DNA of 64,000 bases from Microbacteriaceae bacterium (GTDB lineage Bacteria; Actinomycetota; Actinomycetes; Actinomycetales; Microbacteriaceae), in NCBI GenBank assembly GCA_035299585.1, contig DATGWF010000077.1, forward strand, positions 1,427 through 65,426. The letters are read 5' to 3'. Shown here piece by piece: positions 29,718 through 64,000 of the stretch. Both the position numbers and the translations under genes were made by a program. The first letter of the stretch is position 1; each line of letters begins with the position of its first letter. Under the pieces are notes generated by a model. That model saw only the letters and a list, made by a program, of their open reading frames with translations, was not told where the DNA came from and searched no databases.

Positions 29718-30071
29718 ATGGCAGCGAAACCCACCACGATCGAGGAGTACCTCGACTCGCTCGGCGATGTGCGCGCGGAGACCACGCGGGCAATCATCGA
29801 GTCCGTCCTCTCCGATTTCCCCACCGCCACCGTGAAGATCGCCTGGAACTTCCCGCAAATTCAAGTCGACGGACAGTACGTCCTCGGCATCTCCGCCGCG
29901 AAGAGTTGGCTCATGCTCGCGAGTTGGAGCGACGGGTTTATGGAGCGCTTCGCCGAACGGCTCTCCGGCTACGAAATCAACAAGCGCACCTTCCGGGTGC
30001 CCGTCGACTGGACCCCCGACCGTGCGCTGCTGCACGACCTCGTCGCCGACCGTCTCACCGAACTGAGCTGA
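29718..30071 (+). CDS. small DUF1801/YdhG-like protein
   Basis: Track ORF trimmed to ATG 29718, 3 nt after the glpK stop. 117 aa, KIAWNFPQIQVDGQYVLGISAAKSWLMLA. Family name recalled from memory. Confidence 0.65.
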   Translation: MAAKPTTIEEYLDSLGDVRAETTRAIIESVLSDFPTATVKIAWNFPQIQVDGQYVLGISAAKSWLMLASWSDGFMERFAERLSGYEINKRTFRVPVDWTPDRALLHDLVADRLTELS

Positions 30072-30142
30072 ATCGCCTCACCGAACTCGGCTGAATCGCC
30101 TCACCGAACTCGGCTGAATCGCCTCGCGGAACTCGGCTGAAT
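30051..30142. repeat. 4 x 23-bp tandem repeat spanning the 3' end of the 29718..30071 gene
   Basis: Copies at 30051, 30074, 30097 and 30120. Copies 2 and 3 are identical (CGCCTCACCGAACTCGGCTGAAT). Copies 1 and 4 differ at 3 positions each. Copy 1 encodes the last residues and the stop codon. Confidence 0.9.
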
Positions 30143-43211: not shown

Positions 43212-45002
43212 ATGGCTGAACAGTCAACCATGCGGTCATTGCTGCGTTTGTGGCCGATTCTCGGCCGCGAGCGGTGGATGCTTCTCGGCTCCTTCATCGT
43301 CGCGCTCGTCGCGATGGGGCTCAGCTTGGCCATTCCGCAAGCGCTCGGTTGGATGATTGACGGCCCAATCGCCTCGAACGATCCGCAGCAGATTTGGATT
43401 GCGGCGGGAATCATTTTGGGTCTCGGCGTGCTCGAGTCGTGTGCCTGGATTGTGCGACGCATTGTGTTTTCGTTGCCTCCGGCGTCGGCCATCGAGACAC
43501 GACTGCGTACCCGTCTGTATGCGCGACTGCAGGACCTGCCGGTCGGTTTCCACGACCGTTGGCCGAGCGGCCAGTTGCTCTCGCGTGCGCTCAGCGACAT
43601 CGGCACGATCCGGCGCTGGACCGCCTTCGGTGTGGTGTTCTTCGCCGTGAACGTCGTGGTCATCATCGTTGCCACGGGGATTCTGGTCTGGATGTCGCCC
43701 CTACTCGGTCTGCTCTTCCTCGCCGTGTCTTCGCCCATCTGGGTGCTCGGCTACCGATTCGAGAAGAAGTATTCGGTGTCGTCCCGGCTCAGCCAAGACC
43801 AGGCGGGAAACCTCGCGACCGCGGTTGAAGAATCGGTGCACGGAATCCGCATTCTGAAGGCGTTCGGCCGTGCCGACTATTCGCTCGGTCAGTTCACCCA
43901 GCGGGCGCGCGAATTGCGCCGGACGGAACTCGAAAAGGCCCGGCTCGACGCCGGCATCTGGTTTTGGCTCACCCTGTTGCCTGCGCTCGCACTCGGACTC
44001 ATCCTGCTTGTCGGGGTCATGCAGGTGGCTGCCGGCACGCTCGAGATCGGCACGCTTGTCGCCTTCTTTGCGACCGCGGTATCGCTGCGCTGGCCGGTCG
44101 AATCAATCGGCTTCCTCTACGCATTTACCGTCGATACTCGGACGGCGGTCGACCGCATTTTCGAGATTCTTGATGAACCCAACCCGATTCGTGAACCCGA
44201 CGAGCCGGCCCGCCTTGACGCACCCGAGGGTCGGGTTCGGTTCGAAGACGTCGTGTTCCGGTATCCGGACGCTCCCGCCTCGAGCACGCCACTGCTCGAC
44301 GGAGTGTCGCTCGAGCTGGCACCCGGCGAAACGGTGGCTCTCGTCGGCCTGACCGGATCGGGCAAGTCGACCGTCACCTCGCTCATGATCCGATTGTTCG
44401 ACGTCACGAGCGGACGAATCACGATTGACGGTGTTGATCTGCGCGCCCTCTCGCGCGGGGAGCTTCGCCGCCATGTCGCGATTGCATTTGAGGAGCCGAC
44501 GCTCTTCTCGGCTTCGGTTCGGGACAACGTGCTGCTCGGCCGGCCGGATCTCGTCCCCGGCAGCGACGAAGCCGAGCGCGTGCTCGAAACCGCGCTTCGG
44601 GTCGCGCAGGCGGAATTTGTCAGCAGGCTCCCGGACGGCCTCGACACCGTCATTGGTGAAGAGGGCCACAGCCTGTCGGGTGGGCAGCGCCAGCGCCTCG
44701 CGCTTGCGCGAGCAATTGCCGCAAACCCGACCGTCCTCGTTCTTGACGACCCGCTCTCGGCGCTCGATGTCGAGACGGAGGAGCGGGCACAGCGCGCGCT
44801 CGGTGAGACCCTGCAGCGCACCACGACCCTCGTGGTTGCACACCGCCCCTCGACGGTCTTGCTCGCCGATCGCGTCGCCCTCCTCGAAAAGGGACGCATC
44901 GTGGCGGTCGGCCCACACACGGAGTTGCTCGCGAACGATGCCCGATACCGGCACGTCCTGTCGAGCTTCGAAACCGAGGAGGTGAGCACGAATGAGCGTT
45001 GA
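43212..45002 (+). CDS. ABC transporter fused permease/ATPase (exporter fold), subunit 1 of a pair
   Basis: 596 aa. TMD followed by NBD ([31 protein letters not shown]). Confidence 0.85.
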
Positions 45003-46797
45003 TGGCGTATCGGGCGAAGAGCGGACCGACTACACCCGCGAAGAATCACGCATTATTCGCCGTCGTTCGGCGAACCTGTTACGCGAGGTGTTGCGACCCT
45101 CGGGTCGCCGGTTGGCGTGGTCGATTGCCCTCATCGTTCTCGGCACGATGGCGCAAGTGGCCGGGCCGGCGCTCATTGCAATCGGTATCGACACCGGCAT
45201 TCCTGCCGCGCAAGCGGGGGACTGGCACGTCATCGTGTGGGTCAGTATCGGGTTTTTTGCCAGCGCCCTGTTTTCTGCCAGTGCGGTGTACGGCTACGTT
45301 CGCGGTTTTACCGCAGTCGGCCAGAACGCCATGCTCGACTTGCGCACCCGGCTGTATCGCCACACCCAGCGCCTGAGCCTCGAGTTTCACGAGTCGTACA
45401 CGTCCGGCCGCATTATTGCCCGCCAGACGAGCGACCTCGACTCCATCCGGGAGTTCCTGGGCGAGAGCTTGAACTCGGTCATTGCGGGTCTGTTGTTCAT
45501 GATCTTCACGGCCGGGGCCCTGCTCCTCGTCGACGGGCCGAGCGGTCTCGTGCTGCTCGCCGCCCTCATTCCGATCAGCTTCATCGTGAACTGGTACCAG
45601 AAGCGTTCGGAGCGCGTGTTTCGGGCCTCTCGCGTCGCTTCCGCTCGACTCATTGTGAAGTTCGTCGAGACGATGACGGGCATGCGTGCGGTGCAGGCGT
45701 TCCGCGCCGAGGAGCGCAATCAGGAACGTTTTAACGAACTCAACCGCACCTACGTCGGGTTCAACAACCAGTCGATGCGTCTGTTCGGCATTTTCGCGCC
45801 CTCACTCAACATCGTTGCGGCGTTCACGCTCGCGGTCGTTCTGCTGCTCGGTGGGTTCCGGGTTCTGCAGGACGGCATGGAAATCGGTGTGTTGCTCGCG
45901 GTGCTCCTCTACGTGCGGCAGTTCTTCCAGCCGATTGATGAAGTCGCGGCCTTCTACAACGGCTACCAGTCGGCTTCAGCAGCACTCGAAAAGATTTCCG
46001 GTGTGCTCGCCGAGGACCCGAGCGTTCCTGAGCCCACGCGACCGGTTCCGCTCCCGCAAGCGACGGGTGCCGTGCGTTTCGACCGGGTGGTCTTCGAGTA
46101 TTTGAGCGGACGCACTGTTCTGCCCGAGTTCACCCTCGATGTTCCTGCCGGGCAGACCATTGCGCTCGTCGGCGCGACCGGTGCGGGCAAGACCACCCTC
46201 GCAAAGCTGCTGGCCCGGTTCTACGACCCGAGCCACGGCGAGGTACAGCTCGACGGGGTGTCCTTGCGAAAGATTTCGGGCGAGGATCTGCGTCGCGCGA
46301 TCGTCATGGTCACGCAGGATGCGTATCTGTTTTCCGGAAGTGTGGCCGAGAACATCGCGCTCGGCAAGCCCGGTGCGAGCCGCGACGAGATCATCGCGGC
46401 GGCGACCGCGGTTGGCGCGCACGAGTTCATCACGGCGCTCCCCGAGGGATACGACACCGACGTCAACAAGCGCGGCGGGCGCGTCAGTGCTGGCCAGCGT
46501 CAGCTCATTTCATTCGCCAGGGCGTTCATCGCCGACCCGGCAGTCCTCATTCTCGACGAGGCCACGAGCTCCCTCGACATTCCCAGCGAGCGGCTCGTGC
46601 AGCACGCCCTGCAAACCCTGCTGGCGGACCGTACGGCGCTCATCATCGCGCACCGCCTATCGACCGTCGCCATTGCCGACCGGGTGCTGGTGATGGACGC
46701 GGGTCACATCGTCGAAGACGGCACCCCCGAGCAGCTCATTGCCGGTACCGGACGTTTTGCCGCGCTCCACGCGGCGTGGCGTGACTCGTTGGTCTAA
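44992..46797 (+). CDS. ABC transporter fused permease/ATPase (exporter fold), subunit 2 of a pair
   Basis: 601 aa. TMD followed by NBD ([31 protein letters not shown]). 11-nt overlap with subunit 1. Confidence 0.85.
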
Positions 46798-48128: not shown

Positions 48129-48509
48129 GTGAACACGGTACCGGGCAACGGTCAACACGAGTGTGTCGTCATTCCTTCCTCCTCGGACGAGGAGTTCACC
48201 GCCTCGATGTACGCGCTCGTCCCGAAGCTTCGCGCGGGCCTCGTCGTGCTCGGCCGCGGTCCCGTGAGTCCCGCTCTCGCTCGTGATGCGCAGCAGGCGC
48301 TCCGGAGTGAGCGGGTCACCCTGGTCTGGCTGGCACAACCGCAGCCGACCGAGTTCCACCTGGGCATTCCCGATGGGCTCGCCGAGGACGAGCTGGAAGC
48401 CGTGTACGCCTCGCTCGAAGCGGCACTCCCGGAGCTGTTACATCGCGACGTTCGGGTCACGGTGGCGCCGCTCCCGCAAGTGCTCGCACTCAGCCTTAGC
48501 GGAAGATAA
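48129..48509 (+). CDS. hypothetical protein
   Basis: 126-aa ORF with GTG start. GC3-rich codons and non-repetitive composition. No recognised family. Its 3' end overlaps the purU 3' end by 14 nt. Confidence 0.4.
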   Translation: MNTVPGNGQHECVVIPSSSDEEFTASMYALVPKLRAGLVVLGRGPVSPALARDAQQALRSERVTLVWLAQPQPTEFHLGIPDGLAEDELEAVYASLEAALPELLHRDVRVTVAPLPQVLALSLSGR

Positions 48510-49353
48510 TCGTCCGCTCGCCATCGAGCAGAATCCGGTCCTCGGCGAACCAACGCACCGCCTGAGAGAGGGTGCGACTCTCTTCATCTTGACCGATGGC
48601 AACGAGTTCGGAAACCCGTCGTGAATGGTCGACTCGAACCACGTTCTGTTCGATGATCGGGCCTTCATCGAGGTCGCTCGTCACGAAGTGCGCGGTCGCG
48701 CCAATCAGCTTGACGCCGCGCTGATGTGCCTGCTTGTACGGGTTGGCGCCCTTGAACCCGGGGAGGAACGAGTGGTGGATGTTGATGATGCGGCCACTCA
48801 GCGCCTCGCACAGGTCCGGCGAGAGGATCTGCATGTAGCGGGCGAGTACGACGAGTTCAATGTCGAATTGTTCGACTGCTTCGAGGACGCGTTGCTCGAA
48901 CGCGGCCTTACTCGCGGCATCCGAAACGGGCCGTGTTTCGAACGGCACGCCGTAGAAATCCACGAGGTCGTGGAGCGTGCCGTGGTTTGACAGCACGAGC
49001 GGAATCTCAATGGGGAGCTGGCCGGCGCGCTGGCGAAAGAGCAGATCGTTGACGCAGTGCCCAGCCGTGGACGCGAGCACCAGAGTGCGGAGCGGGCGGC
49101 CAACCCGGTCGAGCTTGAACGACATTTCGAACTGGGAGATGACCGGAGCGAGCGCCTCCTCGACGGCCGAGCGGTCGGACGCCGTCTCGATTTGGAGGCG
49201 CATGAAGAACCTGCCGGTGTCCTCACTCGTGAATTGCTGGCTCTCGGTGATGTTGCCCCGGGCCGCGACGACCGCTCCCGATACGGCGTGGACAATACCC
49301 GGCCCATCGGCGCAAACCAGGGTCAACACCCAGTGGTGCAGTGCCTCATTCAT
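48496..49353 (-). CDS. purU: formyltetrahydrofolate deformylase
   Basis: 285 aa. N-terminal ACT domain (LTLVCADGPGIVHAVSG) and formyltransferase core (IINIHHSFLPGFKGANPY). Confidence 0.95.
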   Translation of the reverse strand: MNEALHHWVLTLVCADGPGIVHAVSGAVVAARGNITESQQFTSEDTGRFFMRLQIETASDRSAVEEALAPVISQFEMSFKLDRVGRPLRTLVLASTAGHCVNDLLFRQRAGQLPIEIPLVLSNHGTLHDLVDFYGVPFETRPVSDAASKAAFEQRVLEAVEQFDIELVVLARYMQILSPDLCEALSGRIINIHHSFLPGFKGANPYKQAHQRGVKLIGATAHFVTSDLDEGPIIEQNVVRVDHSRRVSELVAIGQDEESRTLSQAVRWFAEDRILLDGERTIIFR

Positions 49354-49373
49354 CCGCCCAGCCTATACACTGA

Positions 49374-49449
49374 ACTCGGTCGCGACTGGCGTTTGGATGG
49401 TCACCATCGGGAAGCGACGAGCACGGATCCGACCGCGCGCCTGGGCCGG
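49374..49449 (+). promoter_or_regulatory. ZTP (pfl-motif) riboswitch aptamer upstream of glyA-folD
   Basis: GGTCGCGACTGGCGTTTGGATGGTCACCATCGGGAAGCGAC ... CCGCGCGCCTGGGCC. This matches the conserved GUCGxGACUGGCG, P2 stem, GGGxAGCGAC 5' subdomain and the CGCCUGGGC 3' pseudoknot element. Downstream genes are classic ZTP-regulon members. Confidence 0.8.
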
Positions 49450-49458
49450 ACTGAACCG

Positions 49459-49482
49459 CCTCAGCGCGCCGTGCTGAGGTTT
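49459..49482 (+). terminator. candidate expression-platform hairpin of the ZTP riboswitch
   Basis: CCTCAGC-GCGCCGT-GCTGAGG followed by TTT, 26 nt upstream of the glyA ATG. The U-tract is short, so termination versus RBS occlusion is unresolved. Confidence 0.45.
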
Positions 49483-49507
49483 CAGAACAACACGAGGAAC
49501 CCACCAC

Positions 49508-50782
49508 ATGACCGATTCGTTCTTCAACCAGCCCCTCGCCGAGGTCGACCCGGAAATCGCCGAGGTCCTTGACCGCGAGTTGAACCGCCAGCGCTCCTAC
49601 CTGGAAATGATCGCCTCCGAGAACTTCGTCCCGGTGTCGGTCCTGCAGTCTCAGGGTTCCGTACTCACCAACAAGTACGCCGAGGGCTACCCCGGCAAGC
49701 GCTACTACGGCGGGTGCGAGGAAGTCGACGTTGCCGAAGAGCTCGCAATCGCTCGCGCCAAGGAACTGTTCGGGGCGAAGTTCGCGAACGTCCAGCCGCA
49801 CTCGGGTGCGACGGCGAACGCGGCCGTGCTCCACGCGATCGCTCGCCCGGGAGACACCCTGCTCGGTCTCTCGCTCGACCAGGGTGGCCACCTCACCCAC
49901 GGAATGAAGATCAACTTCTCCGGCCGGCTGTACAACATCGTCGCCTACGGCGTCGACCCGGAGACCTCGCTCATCGACATGGCAGAGGTGCGTCGACTCG
50001 CCCTCGAGCACCAACCCAAGGTCATCATCGCCGGCTGGTCGGCGTACCCGCGCCACCTCGACTTTGCCGAGTTTCGGGCCATCGCCGACGAGGTCGGCGC
50101 GACCCTGTGGGTCGACATGGCGCACTTTGCCGGCCTGGTGGCCGCCGGACTGCACCCCTCACCGGTGCCCTACGCCGATGTCGTGTCGACGACCGTCCAC
50201 AAGACCCTTTCCGGCCCGCGTTCCGGCCTCATTCTGAGCAACGACGAGGAAATCGCCAAGAAGATCAACTCGGCGGTGTTCCCCGGCCAGCAGGGCGGGC
50301 CACTCATGCACGTGATTGCCGCCAAGGCGACCGCGTTCAAGCTCGCGATGACCCCGGAGTTCAAGGACCGTCAGGCCCGCACCCTCTCCGGTGCGAAGTT
50401 GCTCGCCGAGCGGCTGACCCAGCAGGATGTCGTCGACGCCGGCATCTCGATCCGCTCGGGCGGCACCGACGTGCACCTCGTGCTCGTCGACCTGCGGAAT
50501 GCGGCCATTGACGGCAAGCAGGCCGAAGACCTCCTGCACGAGATTCACATCACCGTCAACCGCAACTCGGTTCCCAACGACCCGCGTCCGCCGATGATTA
50601 CCTCGGGCCTGCGCATCGGTACACCGGCCCTCGCCTCGCGCGGCTTCGGTGACACCGAGTTCGCGGAGGTGGCCGACATCATCGCGCTCGCGCTCCTGCC
50701 GGGCGCCGACGTGCCCGCGCTTCGCGCCCGAGTCGCCAAGCTCACCGAGGCGTTCCCGCTTTACCCCGGTTTGCAGCAGTAA
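49508..50782 (+). CDS. glyA: serine hydroxymethyltransferase
   Basis: 424 aa. PLP-lysine context [13 protein letters not shown] and the N-terminal [17 protein letters not shown] motif. Confidence 0.95.
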
Positions 50783-51672
50783 TGCCGGCAATCCGACTCG
50801 ACGGCGTCGCAACCGCGGCGGCGATTCAGGCGGAACTTGCCGACCGAGTGGCGGCGTTGCAGGAGCGGGGGGTCACCCCCGGCATCGCGACCGTGCTCGT
50901 GGGTGCCGATCCGGCGTCTCAGCTCTACGTGGGCATGAAGCATCGGAAGTCTGAGGCGATCGGGATGAACTCCATTCAGGTGGAGCTTCCGGCCGACGCA
51001 ACTCAAGCCGATGTCGAGGCGGCTATCGATTCGCTCAACGCCGATCCGACCTGCCATGGGTTCATCGTGCAATTGCCGCTCCCGAAGCACCTCGACACCG
51101 ACGCGATTCTGGAACGGATCGATCCGGCAAAAGACGCCGACGGACTGCACCCGACGAACCTGGGTCGTCTCGTTTTGAACGTGAACGAGCCGATTACCAC
51201 GCCGCTTCCGTGCACACCTCGAGCGGTCATTGAACTGCTCCGACGGAACGGCTTCGAACTCGCCGGGAAACACGTCGTGGTTGTCGGCCGTGGGGTCACC
51301 ATCGGCCGGTCGATCGGTTTGTTGCTCGCGCGCCGGGATGTGAACGCCACCGTGACCCAGATTCACACCGGAACACCAAACCCTGGCGACTACCTGCGGC
51401 AAGCGGATGTCATCGTCGCCGCGGCCGGAGTGAAGCATCTCGTGCAACCGGGAGACGTGAAGCCCGGTGCCGCCGTCCTCGATGTGGGTGTCACTCGTGA
51501 GGAGAATCCCACGGGTGGCAAGCCGCTCGTGTTTGGCGACGTCAATCCCGCGGTTGCCGATGTTGCCGGCTGGCTTTCGCCGAACCCCGGCGGGGTCGGC
51601 CCGATGACAGTCGCGCTGCTCATGACCAACGTCGTCGAGGCGGCCGAGCGAGCCGTCCTCCGCGCGATCTAA
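50782..51672 (+). CDS. folD: bifunctional methylenetetrahydrofolate dehydrogenase / methenyltetrahydrofolate cyclohydrolase
   Basis: 296 aa. [27 protein letters not shown] and [12 protein letters not shown] motifs. TAATG overlap with glyA. Confidence 0.95.
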
Positions 51673-56585: not shown

Positions 56586-56767
56586 TGAGTTGCCCCTTCG
56601 TGGACACGAATCGGCGGGTATGCTCCGCCATCGTTAGCGTAGCAGCGGGTCTCTCTCGGACCGAACGCGTTCGCGACTCGAGGTGGGCAGGCGGCGAGTG
56701 GAGAAACAGTGCGGGCCCGAACAGTCCACAGTTCGCCTGTGGCGCCGCTCCTCACGAGCGGATACGG

Positions 56768-56840
<73 letters not shown>

Positions 56841-56970: not shown

Positions 56971-59900
56971 ATGCGGTGGTTGACAGCAACCGCGGTGTCC
57001 GCGCGCCTTCGCGCCGGTGCCGCGGCTGTGGCGACCCTTGCGCTCGTGGCCTCTGGTCTCGTTGTGGAATCCGGGGTCGATGCCGACGGCGCCTGGGGCG
57101 CTCCCACGCGTGTCGCATCGAACCTGCTCATCAACCTCGACGGCAACGACACCACGAGCCTCGCCGCGAGCTCGCCGACGAGCTGGAACAGCATCGCTCC
57201 AGCGTCGTCGCTCGTGTCGAGCACGCTCCGCAACGTGACTCGGTACAACTCCGGTGGCATCGGCGGTCTGACACTTCCAGCGGCTGGCCAAGCTGCCGGA
57301 GGCGCGGCATTCGTGGCGGGAACCGGGGCCGTCGCGGGAGCACAGTCGGCCGACATGTGGATCAACCCCTCGAACCTCAACACCGGCTGGAACATCATCG
57401 CTTCCCGATGGTTTTCCGATAGCGCGGGTTCTTCAGCTGCCGTCCAAGACTGGCACTTCGCCATTTTCGTGAGCGGTTCCACCGGTCTGCTTCGCCTCGA
57501 CACCACCTCCCGCACCGGCAGCAACCCGATCTACGGCTCCCAGACATTCCCGACCACGGGCGCGAATGTGTGGTACCACGTCGGGTTCACCATCGATGCC
57601 AGTGGAAACGCTCAGCTGTACGTCAACGGTCGAGCCGACGGAAGCGCGACGGTTGCAAACGCAATCACGGGAAGCTCGTCTGCGCAACTCTGGGTCGGCG
57701 ACCAACGCGGCGGTATGGGTTCGTTCCCGGGCGTCATCAGCAAATTCCGGATCTACAACACCGCGCTGACCGCCGCCCAAATGCAGCAGAACTATCAGGC
57801 GGAAGGCTCGCTCTACGGCTACCCCGTGGTGACGTTCAAATCGAACTACAGCGGCGGTCCGGCTGACACCTTCCAGAACGTCGGCTACAACGTGGCGACC
57901 GCCCTGACCGGGAACACCTTCACCCGCACCGGATACAGCTTTGCCGGTTGGGCGACGAACGCCAACGGCACGGGCACGACATATGCCAACGGCGCAAACA
58001 TCACGACAACGTCGACGAGCGGCGTGGACCTCTACGCGCAATGGGCGCTCAACCCGGTGAGCCCGACCGTGAGCGGCACTCCTCGGGTCGGTCAAGCACT
58101 CACCGGCACCGCGGGTGTCTCAACAGCCCCGAGCGTCACGTCGAGCTATCAATGGCAGCGATCCGTCGACGGCTCGACCGGTTGGACCGATATTGCCGGT
58201 GCGACCGCCATCAGCTACACGGCCGTGACGGCCGATGCGGGCAACTTCCTCCGTTTGCGCCAGACCATCACCGACGGCACCGTGAGCGCGAGTGGGACGA
58301 GTACCAACACGACGGTCGTGCTCTCGGCCAACAGTGCGGCAGCCACGGCTGGCGTGAACAACGCGGTGACCGATCTCATCCCGGCCGTGCCCAATGACAG
58401 CAACGTGGTGAACGTCACGATTGTGTCCTCGAACCTCAGCACCGGACGGCTGAAGTGGAACGCGACCCCGGCGAACCTCACCGGGGTACTCGGTGCCGAC
58501 CCGAACACCACCGGCTGGATTCCGAAAGAGACGCATTCGAGCACATGGGCGACCGCGGGATTCCCGATTCTCAGTTTCCGCGGAACCGGTGCCGACGTTC
58601 GCACCGCGATGGCGACACTGAACTACACCTCGACGACGGTGCAAACCGACACGCTGCGCATCTATGTGAACTCCGGGAGCAGTCAAGACGCGCACGCTCT
58701 GAACTACATTCCGATCGTCGACAACGGCAACCAGCTCACCTTCCACTACTACGCCTTCCAGACCCAGACCGCGCGAATCTGGACCGACACCCAGGCATAC
58801 CTTCAGGGGCTCACCGACATCGGCACCGGAGTGGTTTCGCCGAACAAGTGGCACCTCATGACACCGCGGTACTGGATTGAAGACAGCCGCGGTTGGGGAC
58901 TCAGCGCCTGGGCCGGCAGGCCTGCCGCAAACAACGTGCTGCTCGGGGGCACGGCAAACGCTGGCTCATCGAGCTGGTACTACCCGGCCGGCACGGACGG
59001 GTACACGAGCCAATCCATTTTCTCGGTCAACGCAACCGCGCAAACCGGCTTCTACGGAGCCACGTGGTACCCGCAAGACGCCGGCACGTCTGTCAGCCGC
59101 GGCATGGAGTACTGGTGCAACAGCTGCACGATGTCGAACGGAAACATCTCGGGGACGGGAACGTTCTTTGCCTGGGATGACATTCCTCGTGACACCACCG
59201 CCATCGGCGCGTACATTGCGGAGACCTGGTCGAGCACTCCGCTCGCCACCTCGACAAGCTCGACCGCCGCGCAAACCGTTCGGACCGTTGTCGGCCCGGA
59301 CGCTCCGACCGGACTCTCCGCGACACCGAGCACATCGACAAGTGTCACCCTGAACTGGACCGCTCCCGCGAGCACGGGCACGGACCCCGTCACCGACTAC
59401 ACGATTCAGACCTCCAGCGACCAGTCCACTTGGACGACCTTTGCCGACGGAGTCTCGAGCGCGACGACCGCGACCGTCACCGGATTGATGACCGGGCAAA
59501 CCTATTGGTTCCGAGTTGCGGCGGTGACGAGCACCGGCGGTGCGTATTCGACGACGGCTTCGGCGTTCACGACGCTGACCGGGAATACCAACGCGCTCGG
59601 TGGATACTCCGTGCCCTCGAACCTCACCGGAACAATTCGGGTACTGCTCTGGTCGAGTAACCCGAACGGCAAGCTCTCTGTCACCTCGGCGACCAACATC
59701 GACGGCGGCATCCGGAACACCGCGAACTATCCCGACACGAACGCCTACACCCCGATCAACGGATTCAACCCGGCGACCATTCTGAGCGCGGGCCGCATGA
59801 TCGGTCTCGTCGACACCAGTGCGAGCGAACTCAACGCAGCGCTCGCAACGCTGAAGTATTCCTCCGCGACCGCCTCGACCGACACCATCCGAATGTGGGT

Positions 59901-62900
59901 GTCGAACGGAACCGAGTACATCCCCATTGCGAACGGATCGAACGTTGAGTTCCACTACTACGGATACGTCGGTTCGAGCCAGACCTGGGCAAACGCACGC
60001 AACACGAGCAACGCCGGTGCCGCACGTACCATCGACGGCGAATCATTGGCGGCGGGCACGTCGTTCTTGGCAACGGCGCGCTATCGCGCCGAAGACCTGT
60101 ATCTGAAGTCGCTCAATTCGAGCTCGGCCTGGTTGAGCGCGGCCGACTTCAGCACGGTCGATGGGAGCAATGCGGAAGGCTCCTGGAAGTGGTACGGCGC
60201 CGACGCGAACGGCAACACGGGCGTGCAGTTCTGGTCCGGCGGGCAGGCGGGGTCGTCGGTCGGTGGCGAATACCAGAACTGGGTTGCGTCGGCTGCGACC
60301 ACCCTGCTCGAACCCAACGGAGGCACCGGCGAGAACTGCCTCGGCTACAACGGTGGCGGCACGTTCAACACCGCGCCGACCTCGGGAGTGGCCTGGAACG
60401 ACTTTGGCTGCACGGGAACCACGACCGGGTATTACTGGGAAGCATTCAAGACGGGTGCGCCGTATGGGTCGAACACCTCGAACCCCGGCGCGAGCAACTA
60501 TGCCGCACCCGCGGTGTCGTCCACCATTTCCGTCGCGGCTCCCGTCGCCGCACCGACCGGCCTCACGGCAACGAGTGCGACCGCCGGTCAGATCGACCTG
60601 AGCTGGACAGCCCCCGCCGGTGTGAACGGCATCACCAGCTATTCGATTCAAACCACGACCGACGGCTCCACCTGGACGGAGACCCGCACCACCGCATCGA
60701 CGGCGACGACCCACACCCTGACGGGACTCACGAGCGGCACCTATTACCACATCCGTGTCGCCGCAATCACGGCGAACGGCACGGGCTCGTACGCCTCGAC
60801 GTACTTCACGCCCAACGGCGGGAACCGCATCAGTGCGACGACCAACACGGCGAAGACCATCACTACGATGCAGGTGGATACCGCCATCGGTTCGACGCGC
60901 TACGTGCGCGTCGTGCTTCGCGCCACGAACGCCGGTGCCACCCTCAAACTCGCCGGATCGACCGCAAACATCGGCGCCCAGCGAGGAACCGCGAACGCGG
61001 CAAGCCTCAGCGCCGCCGGGCAGATGATCGGTCTGACCGGAACCGTCGCGAACGTCAACCTCGCACTCCAGGGTCTCAGCTACACCGGACCGGGTTCCGC
61101 GACGACGGACTCGATTGCGATGTGGGTCTCCGCGGGAACGACCGCGAGTACCCCGCGGGATTTCGTGCCCGTCGTGAACAGCCGAGGCGAGGTGGAATTC
61201 CACTACTTCGGATTCACCAACAGCACCCTCACATGGCAGGGGGCATTCAACGCGGCCGCCGCCGACTCCACCCAGATCAACGGCGTCAATGCTCCGGGCA
61301 AGTTCCTCGCCACGCTCGAGAGCCTCGATCAGCAGGTCGCCGCCATGCAGTACTACACCAATGGCGCCTGGCTCGGCGGCGGTGACTACACGGCCGTGAA
61401 CTCGGCGAACGCGGACGGCGCATGGTACTGGCTCGGCCCTGACACGGGCGTGACCCAGTTCTACAGCGGAAGCAACGCGAGCGGCACTGGCGGCATCGTG
61501 GGCGGATCGTTTGTCGCCTGGGGCGCGAGCAACTCGACAACACAGCAGGAGCCCAACAACGGCGTCCAGCAAAACTGTCTGGCGACAATCGCCACCCCGA
61601 ACGCCCTCACCAACTCTGGATTCGTTGCGGTCTCGGCCGTTGGCGGTTACGCCTGGGACGACGGCTCGTGTACCAGCACCCAATCGTCATATGTCTGGGA
61701 ATACGTCTCGAACGAACCCGTCGGTGGCGCGACCCCGGGCGACAACTACGCGACCATGACGGCGCAGGCCGTTGTGGTCAACCCCAATGCCGATGCGCCC
61801 ACCGCCGTCACCGCGAACGCTGCCGGGTCGACGGCCGTCGCGGTCGGCTGGACAAGCCCGACCGTCTACGACTCCAACCCGCTCACCGGCTACACCGTCC
61901 AGTATTCGACGAGCTCGAGCTTCACTTCGCCATCGTCATTCGCAACGGGCTCGACCTCGCCGTTCGCACTCGTGACCGGGCTCACCGCGAACACGACCTA
62001 CTATTTCCGCGTCTTCGCGACCGGTTCCGGTTGGACGGGCCTCACCAGCGCCGCGACCGGGGCCGTCACCACCCCATCGAGCGCAACCAGCATCACCATT
62101 GTCAGCTCGGGCGGTGCCGCCGCGAGCGCGTACAGCCTGACCGGTGGCATTGTGACCGTGAAGACCGGCACGAGCGTGAGCATCAATGCGGCGGACGTGG
62201 TCACGCAGCTTGGCGCCCGTGATGTGCAGATTGCCGCGGACTCCGTCACGATCAACGCTGCCCTCGCGTGGACTGCCAACACCCGACTCACTCTCGGCTT
62301 GTCGAGCGCCTCGACGGTGAACGTCAATGCCGATATCTCGTCGGGCTCCGCGACCGCCGGAGTCGCCATCTTGCCGGCGGCCTGTGCGTTCAGTTCCGCT
62401 GGTAGCTACTCGGGCTGTTACTCGCTCGATGTCAAGAGCGGTGCCAACATTGCCCTCAGTGGAGCGACGCCCACACTCGCAATCGGCGGCCAGGCGTACA
62501 CCGTGCTGAATACGGCCGCGCAGGTTCGGGCACTCAGCAGTAACGCGGGCACTGGCCTGTATGCAGTGACGAACGACGTCGACCTGTCCGGTACGACGGC
62601 AACGACATCAATCGCGTTTGCCAGCGGGTTCTCGGGCACGTTCGACGGTCTCGGTAACACCGTTCGCGGCATTACCTCGAGCGGAAGTTCGTCGTTCGGG
62701 TTCATGCAGTCGATCCAGTCGCCGGGTGTGGTGCGGAACCTCGGCGTGAACGCAAACATCACCCTGACGGCTCCGGGCGCGACTGCAGCCATTGTCGGCG
62801 GCGGTCTGGCCGGGTTCGTGGGCACGGCGGGAAACACCACGATTGACCAGGTGTGGACGACCGGTTCGATTCAAACCGGAAGCGGCTCGTACGGGGCCAT

Positions 62901-64000
62901 CTCGGCCGGTGGTCTCGTGGGAAACGCCTGGGGAAGCTCGCTCAGGATAACGCGCTCGTGGTCGAGCATGAACATCGATACGAGCGCCACGCCCACCTTC
63001 AGCAACGTCGCGCTATCGGGCGGCGGAAGCCAAGCGACCGGCCCGTGTCTTGGCATCGGCGGCCTCGTCGGAACGAACACCGGATCGTTCTGCACGAGCA
63101 GCGCCGGGGCGAACATCTCCGTTGAGCAGGTCTACAGCACGGGCTCGCTCAAGCGGGGAGCCGCTCCGACGTGGCACGGCGTCGGCGGCCTGTTCGGTGT
63201 GGTCACGACGGGTTCTACGGTGTCAGCTACTGACGCGTTCACGTGGGGCCGATACAGCTCGACCGACAGCTTGGCAAGTGTCGGCGGCATGACCGGCTTT
63301 GGAACCGCAAGCTACACCCGGACGTACACCTCGCACTCGGCATGTGCGGCGAACACGACGGCAACCGGGTGTACCTCCAGTGTGCGGCCCGGAACGACCG
63401 GCACCTATTCGACCGCGGCCTGGACCTCGACCAACGGCACCACCCTCGCGAACCTCGCATCCCCGACCATCGCCCTGTTTGTCCGGCCCACCGCCCCGAG
63501 CGACGGGAGCGCGGCAACGGTCGGATACTCGGTGACCGACGCGGCTGGCAACGACTACAAGTCTCTGATGGGTACGACCGGATACCCGACGCTCTCGGGG
63601 GCACCCACCTGGGACACCATCACCACCAGTTCGGGAATCGGGTCGTACAGCGTGACCTATGCCTCGGGGCTGTCACTCACCGGTTCCGGCTCGAGCGCGT
63701 ACACCTTGAATGCGGCGCCGACGGGCACGACCATTGCCATCACCAAGGTGGCCCAAACCATCACCTGGTCTCCGACCACCGCGCTCGTTCGCACCGACAG
63801 CGGCACCGTGCTTCCCGCGGCAACGACCGACGGCGCTGGCGCCATCAGTTACGCGGTGAGCGCGGGAACGGCCTCGTGTGCCTTCAACGCGACGACTCGC
63901 GCACTGACCTTCACTGCGAGCGGAACCTGTGACATCACGGTCACGGCCGCCGCCACGAGCACCAACCTCCAAGCGACCCTCACCCGAACCTTCACCATCG
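56971..64000 (+). CDS. giant secreted multidomain surface protein, 3'-partial (at least 2,343 codons; LamG, InlB-B-repeat, Ig, 3x[unknown domain + C-type-lectin-like + FN3], beta-helix/GLUG, MBG, Ig)
   Basis: Not in the supplied track. Frame +1 was hand-translated from ATG 56971 (preceded by in-frame TGA 56965) to 64000 without a stop. All listed + ORFs in this span lie in the other two frames. N-terminal signal peptide MRWLTATAVSARLRAGAAAVATLALVASGLVV. Domain motifs are listed in the findings. Confidence 0.9.
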   Translation, partial: MRWLTATAVSARLRAGAAAVATLALVASGLVVESGVDADGAWGAPTRVASNLLINLDGNDTTSLAASSPTSWNSIAPASSLVSSTLRNVTRYNSGGIGGLTLPAAGQAAGGAAFVAGTGAVAGAQSADMWINPSNLNTGWNIIASRWFSDSAGSSAAVQDWHFAIFVSGSTGLLRLDTTSRTGSNPIYGSQTFPTTGANVWYHVGFTIDASGNAQLYVNGRADGSATVANAITGSSSAQLWVGDQRGGMGSFPGVISKFRIYNTALTAAQMQQNYQAEGSLYGYPVVTFKSNYSGGPADTFQNVGYNVATALTGNTFTRTGYSFAGWATNANGTGTTYANGANITTTSTSGVDLYAQWALNPVSPTVSGTPRVGQALTGTAGVSTAPSVTSSYQWQRSVDGSTGWTDIAGATAISYTAVTADAGNFLRLRQTITDGTVSASGTSTNTTVVLSANSAAATAGVNNAVTDLIPAVPNDSNVVNVTIVSSNLSTGRLKWNATPANLTGVLGADPNTTGWIPKETHSSTWATAGFPILSFRGTGADVRTAMATLNYTSTTVQTDTLRIYVNSGSSQDAHALNYIPIVDNGNQLTFHYYAFQTQTARIWTDTQAYLQGLTDIGTGVVSPNKWHLMTPRYWIEDSRGWGLSAWAGRPAANNVLLGGTANAGSSSWYYPAGTDGYTSQSIFSVNATAQTGFYGATWYPQDAGTSVSRGMEYWCNSCTMSNGNISGTGTFFAWDDIPRDTTAIGAYIAETWSSTPLATSTSSTAAQTVRTVVGPDAPTGLSATPSTSTSVTLNWTAPASTGTDPVTDYTIQTSSDQSTWTTFADGVSSATTATVTGLMTGQTYWFRVAAVTSTGGAYSTTASAFTTLTGNTNALGGYSVPSNLTGTIRVLLWSSNPNGKLSVTSATNIDGGIRNTANYPDTNAYTPINGFNPATILSAGRMIGLVDTSASELNAALATLKYSSATASTDTIRMWVSNGTEYIPIANGSNVEFHYYGYVGSSQTWANARNTSNAGAARTIDGESLAAGTSFLATARYRAEDLYLKSLNSSSAWLSAADFSTVDGSNAEGSWKWYGADANGNTGVQFWSGGQAGSSVGGEYQNWVASAATTLLEPNGGTGENCLGYNGGGTFNTAPTSGVAWNDFGCTGTTTGYYWEAFKTGAPYGSNTSNPGASNYAAPAVSSTISVAAPVAAPTGLTATSATAGQIDLSWTAPAGVNGITSYSIQTTTDGSTWTETRTTASTATTHTLTGLTSGTYYHIRVAAITANGTGSYASTYFTPNGGNRISATTNTAKTITTMQVDTAIGSTRYVRVVLRATNAGATLKLAGSTANIGAQRGTANAASLSAAGQMIGLTGTVANVNLALQGLSYTGPGSATTDSIAMWVSAGTTASTPRDFVPVVNSRGEVEFHYFGFTNSTLTWQGAFNAAAADSTQINGVNAPGKFLATLESLDQQVAAMQYYTNGAWLGGGDYTAVNSANADGAWYWLGPDTGVTQFYSGSNASGTGGIVGGSFVAWGASNSTTQQEPNNGVQQNCLATIATPNALTNSGFVAVSAVGGYAWDDGSCTSTQSSYVWEYVSNEPVGGATPGDNYATMTAQAVVVNPNADAPTAVTANAAGSTAVAVGWTSPTVYDSNPLTGYTVQYSTSSSFTSPSSFATGSTSPFALVTGLTANTTYYFRVFATGSGWTGLTSAATGAVTTPSSATSITIVSSGGAAASAYSLTGGIVTVKTGTSVSINAADVVTQLGARDVQIAADSVTINAALAWTANTRLTLGLSSASTVNVNADISSGSATAGVAILPAACAFSSAGSYSGCYSLDVKSGANIALSGATPTLAIGGQAYTVLNTAAQVRALSSNAGTGLYAVTNDVDLSGTTATTSIAFASGFSGTFDGLGNTVRGITSSGSSSFGFMQSIQSPGVVRNLGVNANITLTAPGATAAIVGGGLAGFVGTAGNTTIDQVWTTGSIQTGSGSYGAISAGGLVGNAWGSSLRITRSWSSMNIDTSATPTFSNVALSGGGSQATGPCLGIGGLVGTNTGSFCTSSAGANISVEQVYSTGSLKRGAAPTWHGVGGLFGVVTTGSTVSATDAFTWGRYSSTDSLASVGGMTGFGTASYTRTYTSHSACAANTTATGCTSSVRPGTTGTYSTAAWTSTNGTTLANLASPTIALFVRPTAPSDGSAATVGYSVTDAAGNDYKSLMGTTGYPTLSGAPTWDTITTSSGIGSYSVTYASGLSLTGSGSSAYTLNAAPTGTTIAITKVAQTITWSPTTALVRTDSGTVLPAATTDGAGAISYAVSAGTASCAFNATTRALTFTASGTCDITVTAAATSTNLQATLTRTFTI
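58321..59574 (+). repeat. supermodule copy 1 of the giant protein (unknown domain + degenerate CTLD + FN3)
   Basis: Anchors: ...AMATLNYTS..TDTLRIYVNSG...LTFHYYAF (58735-), ...FFAWDDIPRD..., FN3 at 59296-59574 (PTGLSATPSTSTSVTLNWTAP...YWFRVAAVTSTG). Confidence 0.7.
59575..60813 (+). repeat. supermodule copy 2 (unknown domain + CTLD with EPN/WND + FN3)
   Basis: Anchors: ...ALATLKYSS..TDTIRMWVSNG...VEFHYYGY (59944-), EPN at 60310-60318, WND at 60394-60402, FN3 at 60541-60813. Confidence 0.75.
60814..62076 (+). repeat. supermodule copy 3 (unknown domain + CTLD with EPN/WDD + FN3)
   Basis: Anchors: ...ALQGLSYTG..TDSIAMWVSAG...VEFHYFGF (61192-), EPN at 61549-61557, WDD at 61654-61662, FN3 at 61789-62076. 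Confidence 0.75.

Follow-up and report, generated by a model that had tools for sequence, protein, structure and literature searches.

In animals, C-type lectins are the textbook receptors of immunity and adhesion, and the locus described here raises the question of whether an actinobacterium carries domains of the same kind, with a usable Ca2+ and sugar site, in a giant repeat protein. The locus lies in a 64,000-nt stretch of DNA, called the window below (positions 1,427 to 65,426 of contig DATGWF010000077.1, forward strand, assembly GCA_035299585.1), in which a plus-strand open reading frame (ORF) begins with the ATG at position 56971 and stays open past the window end, with 2343 aa of its product visible. 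An exact look-up identified this product with residues 1 to 2343 of HLP23575.1, a partial protein of 5432 aa that is truncated at the end of a 74.7-kb contig and whose sole annotation is "fibronectin type III domain-containing protein, partial." The source is a metagenome-assembled genome (MAG) of a freshwater-type member of the Microbacteriaceae, in agreement with the Micrococcales host proposed in a preliminary description of this DNA, which was made from the letters alone. On balance, we favor the view that the protein carries diverged C-type-lectin-like domains (CTLDs) in the N-terminal head of a giant (>5432 aa) fibrillar adhesin and that they probably bind sugar; the Ca2+ and sugar binding and the adhesin role are what we infer from the evidence set out below.

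The center of the ORF is a threefold repeat. As the preliminary description had it, three in-frame units of 418, 413, and 421 aa follow one another, each made up of a domain of no assigned family (X), a middle domain, and a fibronectin type III (FN3) domain (Table 1). All of the peptides quoted there are present, Pfam recovers FN3 in each unit, and the copies align end to end, copies 2 and 3 with copy 1 at 37% and 26% identity, respectively. With FN3 excluded, copies 2 and 3 match each other at a BLASTP E value of 7e-42 (36% identity), and copy 2 matches copy 1 at 5e-11 over X and the first strand of the CTLD only. The copy 1 CTLD was linked by profile comparison, in which copy-1-type sequences (n = 10) aligned with canonical bacterial CTLDs (n = 18) over 132 columns (hhalign probability of 97.0%, E=1e-10). 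No DNA-level repeats were found among the three copies, so that the triplication must be old.

The identity of the middle domains emerges at the level of the family. From a single sequence, the best match in the PDB by phmmer was CD23 (E=0.26), AlphaFold2 gave an unfolded chain (predicted local distance difference test score [pLDDT] of 32), and a word-indexed homologue search returned two metagenomic fragments only, probably owing to low-complexity words that saturated the candidate list. A profile hidden Markov model (HMM) seeded with the window's three X+CTLD copies and one metagenomic relative was then run exhaustively against 1.84 billion representative proteins and found 151 of them at E<=1e-3. 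Pfam recognized Lectin_C in 54 of the 65 proteins scanned from this set (best E=1.9e-15), accompanied by Big_5, PG_binding_1, PEP-CTERM, Glug, and fn3 modules. When the 17 closest CTLDs, none of them recognized by Pfam, were combined into a profile, the PDB matches included human CLEC4D (8.5e-7), SP-D (6.7e-4), and mannose-binding protein (MBP; 2.7e-3), and everything matched down to E~0.25 was a CTLD. A 53-sequence alignment headed by copy 2 was compared with the carbohydrate-recognition domain (CRD) of rat MBP-A, whose sequence had been checked against 1msb/2msb (256 bits), and gave an hhalign probability of 97.9% (E=5.6e-13). One distant homologue is labeled "lectin-like protein" by the Joint Genome Institute. 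We regard the homology of the middle domains to C-type lectins as solid at the profile level.

The predicted structure agrees. Modeled on the family alignment, the CTLD of copy 2 (CTLD2) reached a mean pLDDT of 85.9 and a predicted template modeling score (pTM) of 0.85, and its elements run beta1-alpha1-alpha2-beta2...beta5, which is the double-loop alpha/beta order of CTLDs. All 50 of the top 50 PDB matches found by Foldseek were animal CTLDs (TM-target values of 0.6-0.74, probability of 1.00), including Mincle, Dectin-2, CD23, MGL, CEL-I, tetranectin, and MBP-A; a superposition on mannose-binding protein had been suggested in the preliminary description. According to this model, CTLD2 has the CTLD fold, and the earlier assignment of the middle domain is thus upheld by both profile homology and predicted structure.

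We next consider the residues that hold Ca2+ and sugar in animal lectins. In MBP-A, as is established, Ca2+ is coordinated at the principal site (site 2) by E185, N187, E193, N205, and D206, and an inner disulfide links C195 and C209. In the hhalign alignment of copy 2 to MBP-A, the equivalents of EPN, E193, WND, and C195/C209 matched residue for residue, with a YYWE terminus opposite VCEF. All five site-2 ligands of CTLD2 (E1114, N1116, E1121, N1143, and D1144) are identical to those of MBP-A and the Pro is kept, and the same set is also kept in the orthologous copies of two homologues, P0006 and P0007. CTLD3 reads E, P, N, Q, D, D at this site, with three of five ligands identical and a paired amide/carboxylate swap (E193Q/N205D). 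The inner Cys pair is found in CTLD2 (C1123/C1147) and CTLD3 (C1536/C1567), and the pattern EPN...E/Q-N-C...W-N/D-D-x(2)-C that had been picked out earlier, inner cysteines included, aligns column for column with MBP-A. The outer pair (C1-C4, from alpha1 to beta5) is missing from all three copies, as had been noticed, and also from the consensus of the bacterial clade ("YVVEY" for "VCEF"); because its loss is a trait of the clade, it is no argument against homology.

CTLD1 lacks both the inner Cys pair and the mannose-type ligand set, reading YPQ, S, D, D at site 2. The proposal that copy 1 kept the fold anchors and lost EPN is confirmed by its YPQD...WDD residues and by the profile match to canonical bacterial CTLDs given above. 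Judged by these residues, copy 1 is a degenerate CTLD and the copy-1-type CTLDs are a distinct CTLD subtype. CTLD1 and its copy-1-type relatives (P0010, P0011, and P0013), which have no inner disulfide, share a C-N-S/G-C motif in the long loop (CNSC in the window). Sister sequences of the copy-1 type show EPN (P0001 and P0009), QPD (P0008 and P0012), or NPD (P0005), followed by D/G/A-R...WDD, and likewise have no disulfide.

Site columns were tabulated over 88 bacterial CTLD segments (proteins P0001-P0151). The combination EPN/E/WND occurs in 43 of these and QPD/E/WND in 8. The positions equivalent to 193 and 205 vary strictly together, with E193 and N205 in 55 segments, a residue other than E193 and D205 in 16, and mixed combinations in none (Fisher p~3e-16, relatedness not corrected); among distant sequences only, the counts are 51 versus 3, again with no mixed case. 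Likewise, the inner Cys pair is all-or-none, with both cysteines in 32 and neither in 46 of 78 bacterial segments. These patterns are as would be expected for one metal/sugar site and one disulfide, and the perfect covariation of E193/N205 versus non-E/D205 argues for selection on a functional site. Together with the alignment to MBP-A and the fold match, the covariation lends indirect support to the five CTLD2 ligands meeting at a single metal.

Members of the close family bear one to three X-CTLD-FN3 units atop FN3/immunoglobulin (Ig)-like stalks and fall into ~15 metagenome or MAG clusters; among them is MEG2886557.1 from an Aurantimicrobium sp. MAG. Exact peptides of the window protein gave no match in the genome collection. 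When one genome for each GTDB species was scanned with a pattern from a four-sequence subtype-2 alignment, Aurantimicrobium minutum and one weak Omnitrophota match were found. The protein of the cultured A. minutum strain MWH-Tana7 (NZ_JARXXV010000001.1, L001 3001-3540) has a signal peptide, then a single X-CTLD-FN3 unit and a stalk of the same type, and matches copy 2 at 42% identity (E=2e-31).

The protein as a whole begins with a putative signal peptide, followed by a concanavalin A-like LamG domain, an Flg_new repeat, an Ig-like domain, the three X-CTLD-FN3 units, a region of ~640 aa, and the FN3/Ig stalk. In HLP23575.1, this stalk spans ~3000 aa of alternating fn3 and IG_AIR9-like (A9-type Ig) domains, ~15 pairs by Pfam. 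Complete relatives are 950-7000 aa long, and at their C termini a conserved beta-rich segment is followed by a single transmembrane helix and a basic tail. An LPXTG motif is absent, which suggests anchoring by a membrane tail and not by sortase attachment. The C termini of P0004, P0005, P0152, P0011, P0014, P0154, and P0017 share the pattern "...(L/I)Q(I/V)NG(V/M)D..G.VVS..YG(I/V)..", then the transmembrane helix and an RRR-type tail. Fibrillar adhesins of Actinobacteria and other Gram-positive bacteria have their adhesive domains at the N terminus and their stalk and anchor at the C terminus (Monzon et al. 2021, PMC8286594). Read from its domains, the giant ORF appears to have this layout, with a putative signal peptide, lectin-type domains at the N terminus, an FN3/Ig stalk, and, to judge by its relatives, probably a C-terminal anchor.

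Put together, these features outline how the head might work. The protein would be exported by the Sec pathway and anchored in the membrane by its C terminus, and the head would be projected on the FN3/Ig stalk; because complete relatives end in a transmembrane helix and a basic tail, the head would be held far from the cell. CTLD2 would bind Ca2+ through the five residues equivalent to the MBP-A ligands, and the bound Ca2+ would ligate vicinal equatorial hydroxyls of mannose-, glucose-, N-acetylglucosamine-, or fucose-type sugars, as in animal lectins of the EPN type. CTLD3, of the same architecture, probably keeps Ca2+, but its E-to-Q and N-to-D swap on the other side of the site is expected to rearrange the hydrogen bonds and thereby to shift the specificity. 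CTLD1, its site lost, is probably structural or may bind another ligand. Several lectin-type modules in one head (LamG, CTLD2, and CTLD3) could provide avidity, and likely ligands would be environmental polysaccharides or the glycans of algal, cyanobacterial, or bacterial cells. The multivalent lectin of the preliminary description survives in part: copy 2 has the full ligand set, but copy 3 is a Q/D variant and copy 1 has lost the site, so that at best two of three copies would qualify.

Several observations weigh against a Ca2+-dependent lectin head. The Lectin_C search that had been suggested as a check came back empty on the sequence itself: the Pfam model (PF00059) gave no match at E<1, whether it was run on the entire protein, on the three supermodules, or on the domains by themselves, which is why a family profile is needed for recognition, and NCBIfam gave no CTLD match to the window sequences. 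In the CTLD2 model, the EPN loop is predicted with only moderate confidence (pLDDT of 74-87 by block), and only part of site 1 survives in CTLD2 (D, E, G, N versus D161, E165, N188, D194 in MBP-A). The neighboring genes (tRNA-Lys, purU, glyA, folD, a LacI regulator, a GNAT protein, and two ABC exporters) give no functional hint, and HLP23575.1 ends before its C terminus at the contig end, which would place any anchor of its own outside the available sequence. Finally, the A. minutum homologue has RPV...KHC...WHN in place of the EPN...ENC...WND of copy 2, with all five ligands replaced, mostly by basic residues. Because of this replacement in the closest cultured relative, the A. minutum site appears to be a metal-free variant, and Ca2+-dependent lectin activity is no constant of the clade, some members of which have exchanged the site for basic residues. 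It is mainly for this reason that we rate lectin function as no more than fairly probable.

These points lend themselves to another explanation, in which the domains have the CTLD fold but are not lectins, serving as structural spacers or protein-binding modules, like those of intimin and invasin or the many animal CTLDs that bind no sugar; EPN/WND would then hold Ca2+ for stability or hold nothing. The lost site of CTLD1, the incomplete site 1 of CTLD2, and the R/V/K/H/N residues at the five ligand positions in A. minutum all fit such a role, as does the fact that most known CTLDs of bacterial adhesins (Intimin_C) are non-lectins (PMC8286594). However, CTLD2 keeps five of five site-2 ligands and the cis-Pro position, the P0006 and P0007 copies and 43 of the 88 bacterial CTLDs do likewise, and the covariation at 193/205 speaks for selection on a functional site. 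We consider this explanation unlikely, although it is the most serious competitor to a sugar-binding head.

A bolder form of the sugar-binding reading would be that the three subtypes make up a built-in panel of different Ca2+-dependent specificities, with subtype 2 as the classical EPN/E/WND form and the subtype 3 swap as a possible specificity class not described in animal lectins. The E193Q/N205D pair mirrors, across the Ca2+ site, the EPN-to-QPD swap of animal lectins and could invert the donor/acceptor pattern for the second hydroxyl. If this were true, planktonic Microbacteriaceae would attach to phytoplankton or particle polysaccharides via a giant multispecific C-type lectin array, and the strict 193/205 covariation would provide all CTLDs with a specificity rule that is new. 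We regard this form as speculative and, at present, quite improbable.

It is also conceivable that the Ca2+ site serves a nonglycan ligand, such as ice, a mineral, or another hydroxyl-rich surface, in which case a cold freshwater bacterium would use the protein to adhere to ice or particles. The sequence and fold matches do include Ca2+-dependent type II antifreeze proteins (2py2, 6jk4, and 6jk5), and giant repeat adhesins with ice-binding heads are present in other bacteria (MpIBP, PMC8092209). These matches are no better than the lectin matches, however, the MAG comes without habitat information, and EPN with a full ligand set is a sugar-binding signature, all of which makes the ice alternative very unlikely. 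We give practically no credence to a diversity-generating retroelement that would have the CTLDs as its variable-protein (CLec) targets: the CLec fold is the usual scaffold for such targets, but within the 64-kb window the gene takes part in no template/variable pair and in no DNA repeat of 40 nt or longer (no search was aimed at a reverse transcriptase), and the domains fall in the Lectin_C clade that bears Ca2+ sites and not among CLec domains of the FGE/DUF1566 type. A chance EPN...WND match in a low-complexity repeat protein rich in Thr, Ser, Gly, and Ala, with no CTLD at all, might have been read into the empty Lectin_C search and the single-sequence PDB and AlphaFold2 results, but it is refuted by the convergence of profile, profile-profile, homologue Pfam, and alignment-based model evidence on a CTLD.

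Each CTLD is preceded by domain X, of ~115-135 aa, which had no match in Pfam or the PDB, also when used as an 18-sequence profile. Domain X is not private to this protein, however: of 115 complete CTLD matches of the family profile (94 proteins), 101 run on into the C-terminal half of X, and since this half precedes the CTLD so regularly, X-CTLD is a conserved didomain of bacterial CTLD proteins. The consensus of the half is "G..I.F.GT....N.ALA.L.Y.....TDTI...V". It is also repeated in tandem in proteins with Cadherin_4/Big_9 domains, models that may or may not overlap X. Domain X is most likely a beta-sandwich spacer, and it appears to be a companion module of wide occurrence that has so far gone undescribed.

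Between the head and the stalk lies the region of aa 1703-2340, for which searches of Pfam, NCBIfam, and the PDB came back empty. GG(L/M)xG-like motifs recur in it. Because Pfam Glug motifs are present in six homologues that are more distant, this region may have arisen by divergence from a GLUG or beta-helix region.

As for the surroundings, a tRNA-Lys(UUU) gene lies 130 nt upstream of the ORF start. The A. minutum homologue stands in another context, after gyrA and a TetR-like gene, and as the two genes are not syntenic, the giant gene may occupy a variable or island-like position. Farther upstream, positions 43212-46797 and 48496-51672 hold an MsbA/CydDC-like ABC half-transporter gene pair, then a folate/one-carbon cluster made up of a purU-like formyltransferase gene (minus strand), glyA, and folD, an ordinary housekeeping context. 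About four tandem copies of a 23-nt unit (CGCCTCACCGAACTCGGCTGAAT) lie apparently between ORFs at the position given in Table 1.

Table 1. Features of the giant ORF and its surroundings (window coordinates; residue numbers refer to the ORF product)
Feature	Position	Strand	Evidence or remark
Tandem copies of a 23-nt unit	30051-30142		
tRNA-Lys(UUU)	56766-56840	-	
Giant ORF, 5' part	56971-64000	+	2343 aa, identical to N-terminal part of HLP23575.1
Putative Sec signal peptide (MRWLTATAVSARLRAGAAAVATLALVASGLVV...)	56971-57090	+	Read by eye from sequence; similar N termini in relatives
Laminin_G_3 / concanavalin A-like lectin-glucanase domain	57334-57780	+	Pfam E=1.4e-19
Listeria-Bacteroides repeat (Flg_new)	57829-58041	+	Pfam E=2.1e-8
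Ig-like "YQWQ" domain, stalk-repeat type	58069-58320	+	Weak IG_AIR9, E=0.12; stalk copies 4.6e-7
Supermodule 1	58321-59574	+	418 aa (aa 451-868)
X1, ~130-aa domain before CTLD1	58321-58707	+	No Pfam or PDB match
CTLD1, degenerate; YPQD for EPN, WDD kept, no inner Cys pair	58708-59232	+	hhalign 97.0%, E=1e-10
CNSC motif in long loop of CTLD1	59110-59130	+	
FN3-1	59299-59553	+	Pfam fn3 E=3e-14
Supermodule 2	59575-60813	+	413 aa (aa 869-1281)
X2	59575-59919	+	Repeat alignment
CTLD2, complete mannose-type Ca2+-site-2 ligand set	59920-60450	+	Profile, AlphaFold2/Foldseek, hhalign
CTLD2 E1114-P-N1116-GGTG-E1121-N-C1123	60310-60339	+	Aligned to MBP-A E185-P-N187...E193-D-C195
CTLD2 codons, 193/205 equivalents	60331-60333 / 60397-60399	+	Alignment
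CTLD2 W1142-N1143-D1144-F-G-C1147	60394-60411	+	Aligned to MBP-A W204-N205-D206-I-S-C209
FN3-2	60550-60792	+	Pfam fn3 E=4e-14
Supermodule 3	60814-62076	+	421 aa (aa 1282-1702)
X3	60814-61164	+	Repeat alignment
CTLD3, EPN with Q at E193 position and D at N205 position	61165-61710	+	Alignment
CTLD3 E1527-P-N1529-NGVQ-Q1534-N-C1536	61549-61578	+	Alignment
CTLD3 codons, 193/205 equivalents	61570-61572 / 61657-61659	+	Alignment
CTLD3 W1562-D1563-D1564-G-S-C1567	61654-61671	+	Alignment
FN3-3	61792-62037	+	Pfam fn3 E=1.4e-11
Gly/Thr/Ser-rich region, ~640 aa, between lectin head and FN3/Ig stalk	62077-63990	+	No family match

Taken together, the locus does not represent a new kind of system, because the fold, the motif logic, and bacterial Lectin_C domains are known and about half of the recovered bacterial segments have EPN/E/WND. 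The novelty claimed in the preliminary description must be narrowed in the same way: CTLDs with EPN/E/WND are common in other bacteria, but the divergent, unannotated Microbacteriaceae clade and the arrangement in supermodules are new. More specifically, what is new is a Microbacteriaceae CTLD clade invisible to Pfam and NCBIfam, its three subtypes arranged as X-CTLD-FN3 in a probable giant adhesin, and the paired E193Q/N205D change. Nothing here alters the known fold or mechanism of CTLDs. Bacterial counterparts of C-type lectins are present in domain databases, and standard annotation misses this clade completely, even though one copy appears, from its residues, to have everything needed for Ca2+-dependent binding of mannose-type sugars. 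The E193/N205 covariation offers a testable rule on how the CTLD sugar site evolves in its second half. A. minutum is a cultured relative in which the family could be studied, and the locus would give a model for glycan attachment by small-genome planktonic actinobacteria, which presumably devote ~1% of the genome to this one gene.

Among known systems, the Lectin_C domains of bacterial surface proteins are direct homologues. They have in common with the window's copies the motifs "GHYYE...TW..A", "YLATITS", "W.WV.GPE.GTQFWSG", "EPN", "WND", and "YVVEY", likewise lack the outer disulfide, and are usually preceded by the half of X described above. By comparison, the Microbacteriaceae copies are too diverged for Pfam and form three paralogous subtypes in X-CTLD-FN3 units; the inner disulfide is missing from subtype 1, and the Q/D swap marks subtype 3. 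To our knowledge, none of these bacterial Lectin_C domains has been biochemically characterized; a search of the searchable literature found no biochemical study of a canonical bacterial CTLD and returned only papers on animal lectins.

With the animal mannose-type CRDs (rat MBP-A 2msb/1kwu, Mincle, Dectin-2, CD23, and SP-D), CTLD2 has fold and profile homology in common. It shares with CRDs of the MBP-A type the EPN motif, the E193 equivalent, WND, the inner cysteines, a WIGL-like "AWLSAAD", and a C-terminal "..WE" strand. Unlike animal CRDs, CTLD2 has no outer disulfide and only a partly conserved site 1. It is also longer (177 aa versus ~115-130), with ~19 extra residues ("GVQFWSGGQAGSSVGGEY") before the "NW" strand and further insertions. 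Its host is a bacterial giant repeat protein, not a collectin or receptor, and its neighbor in copy 3 carries the E193Q/N205D pair.

Other adhesins offer partial parallels. Intimin and invasin also place a domain of the CTLD superfamily (Intimin_C) at the tip of an adhesin on an Ig-like stalk (PMC8286594), but Intimin_C has no Ca2+/sugar site, binds Tir or integrins, is confined to Proteobacteria, and has no detectable sequence relation to the domains described here. The PA14 adhesin MpIBP (PMC8092209) resembles the window's protein in having a long repeat stalk and a Ca2+-dependent module that binds vicinal diols, an activity that for CTLD2 is suggested by its site residues. The two differ in the fold of the module (PA14 versus CTLD) and in export and attachment, with a type I secretion system and repeats-in-toxin (RTX) sequences in MpIBP and, presumably, Sec with a C-terminal transmembrane tail here. 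The "bacterial C-type lectin" mentioned in the same paper (PMC8092209) is LecB, which is not a CTLD. Lastly, the Ca2+-dependent type II antifreeze proteins of herring and smelt (2py2 and 6jk4) are CTLD homologues that use the same Ca2+ site, which in their case is of the QPD type and binds ice.

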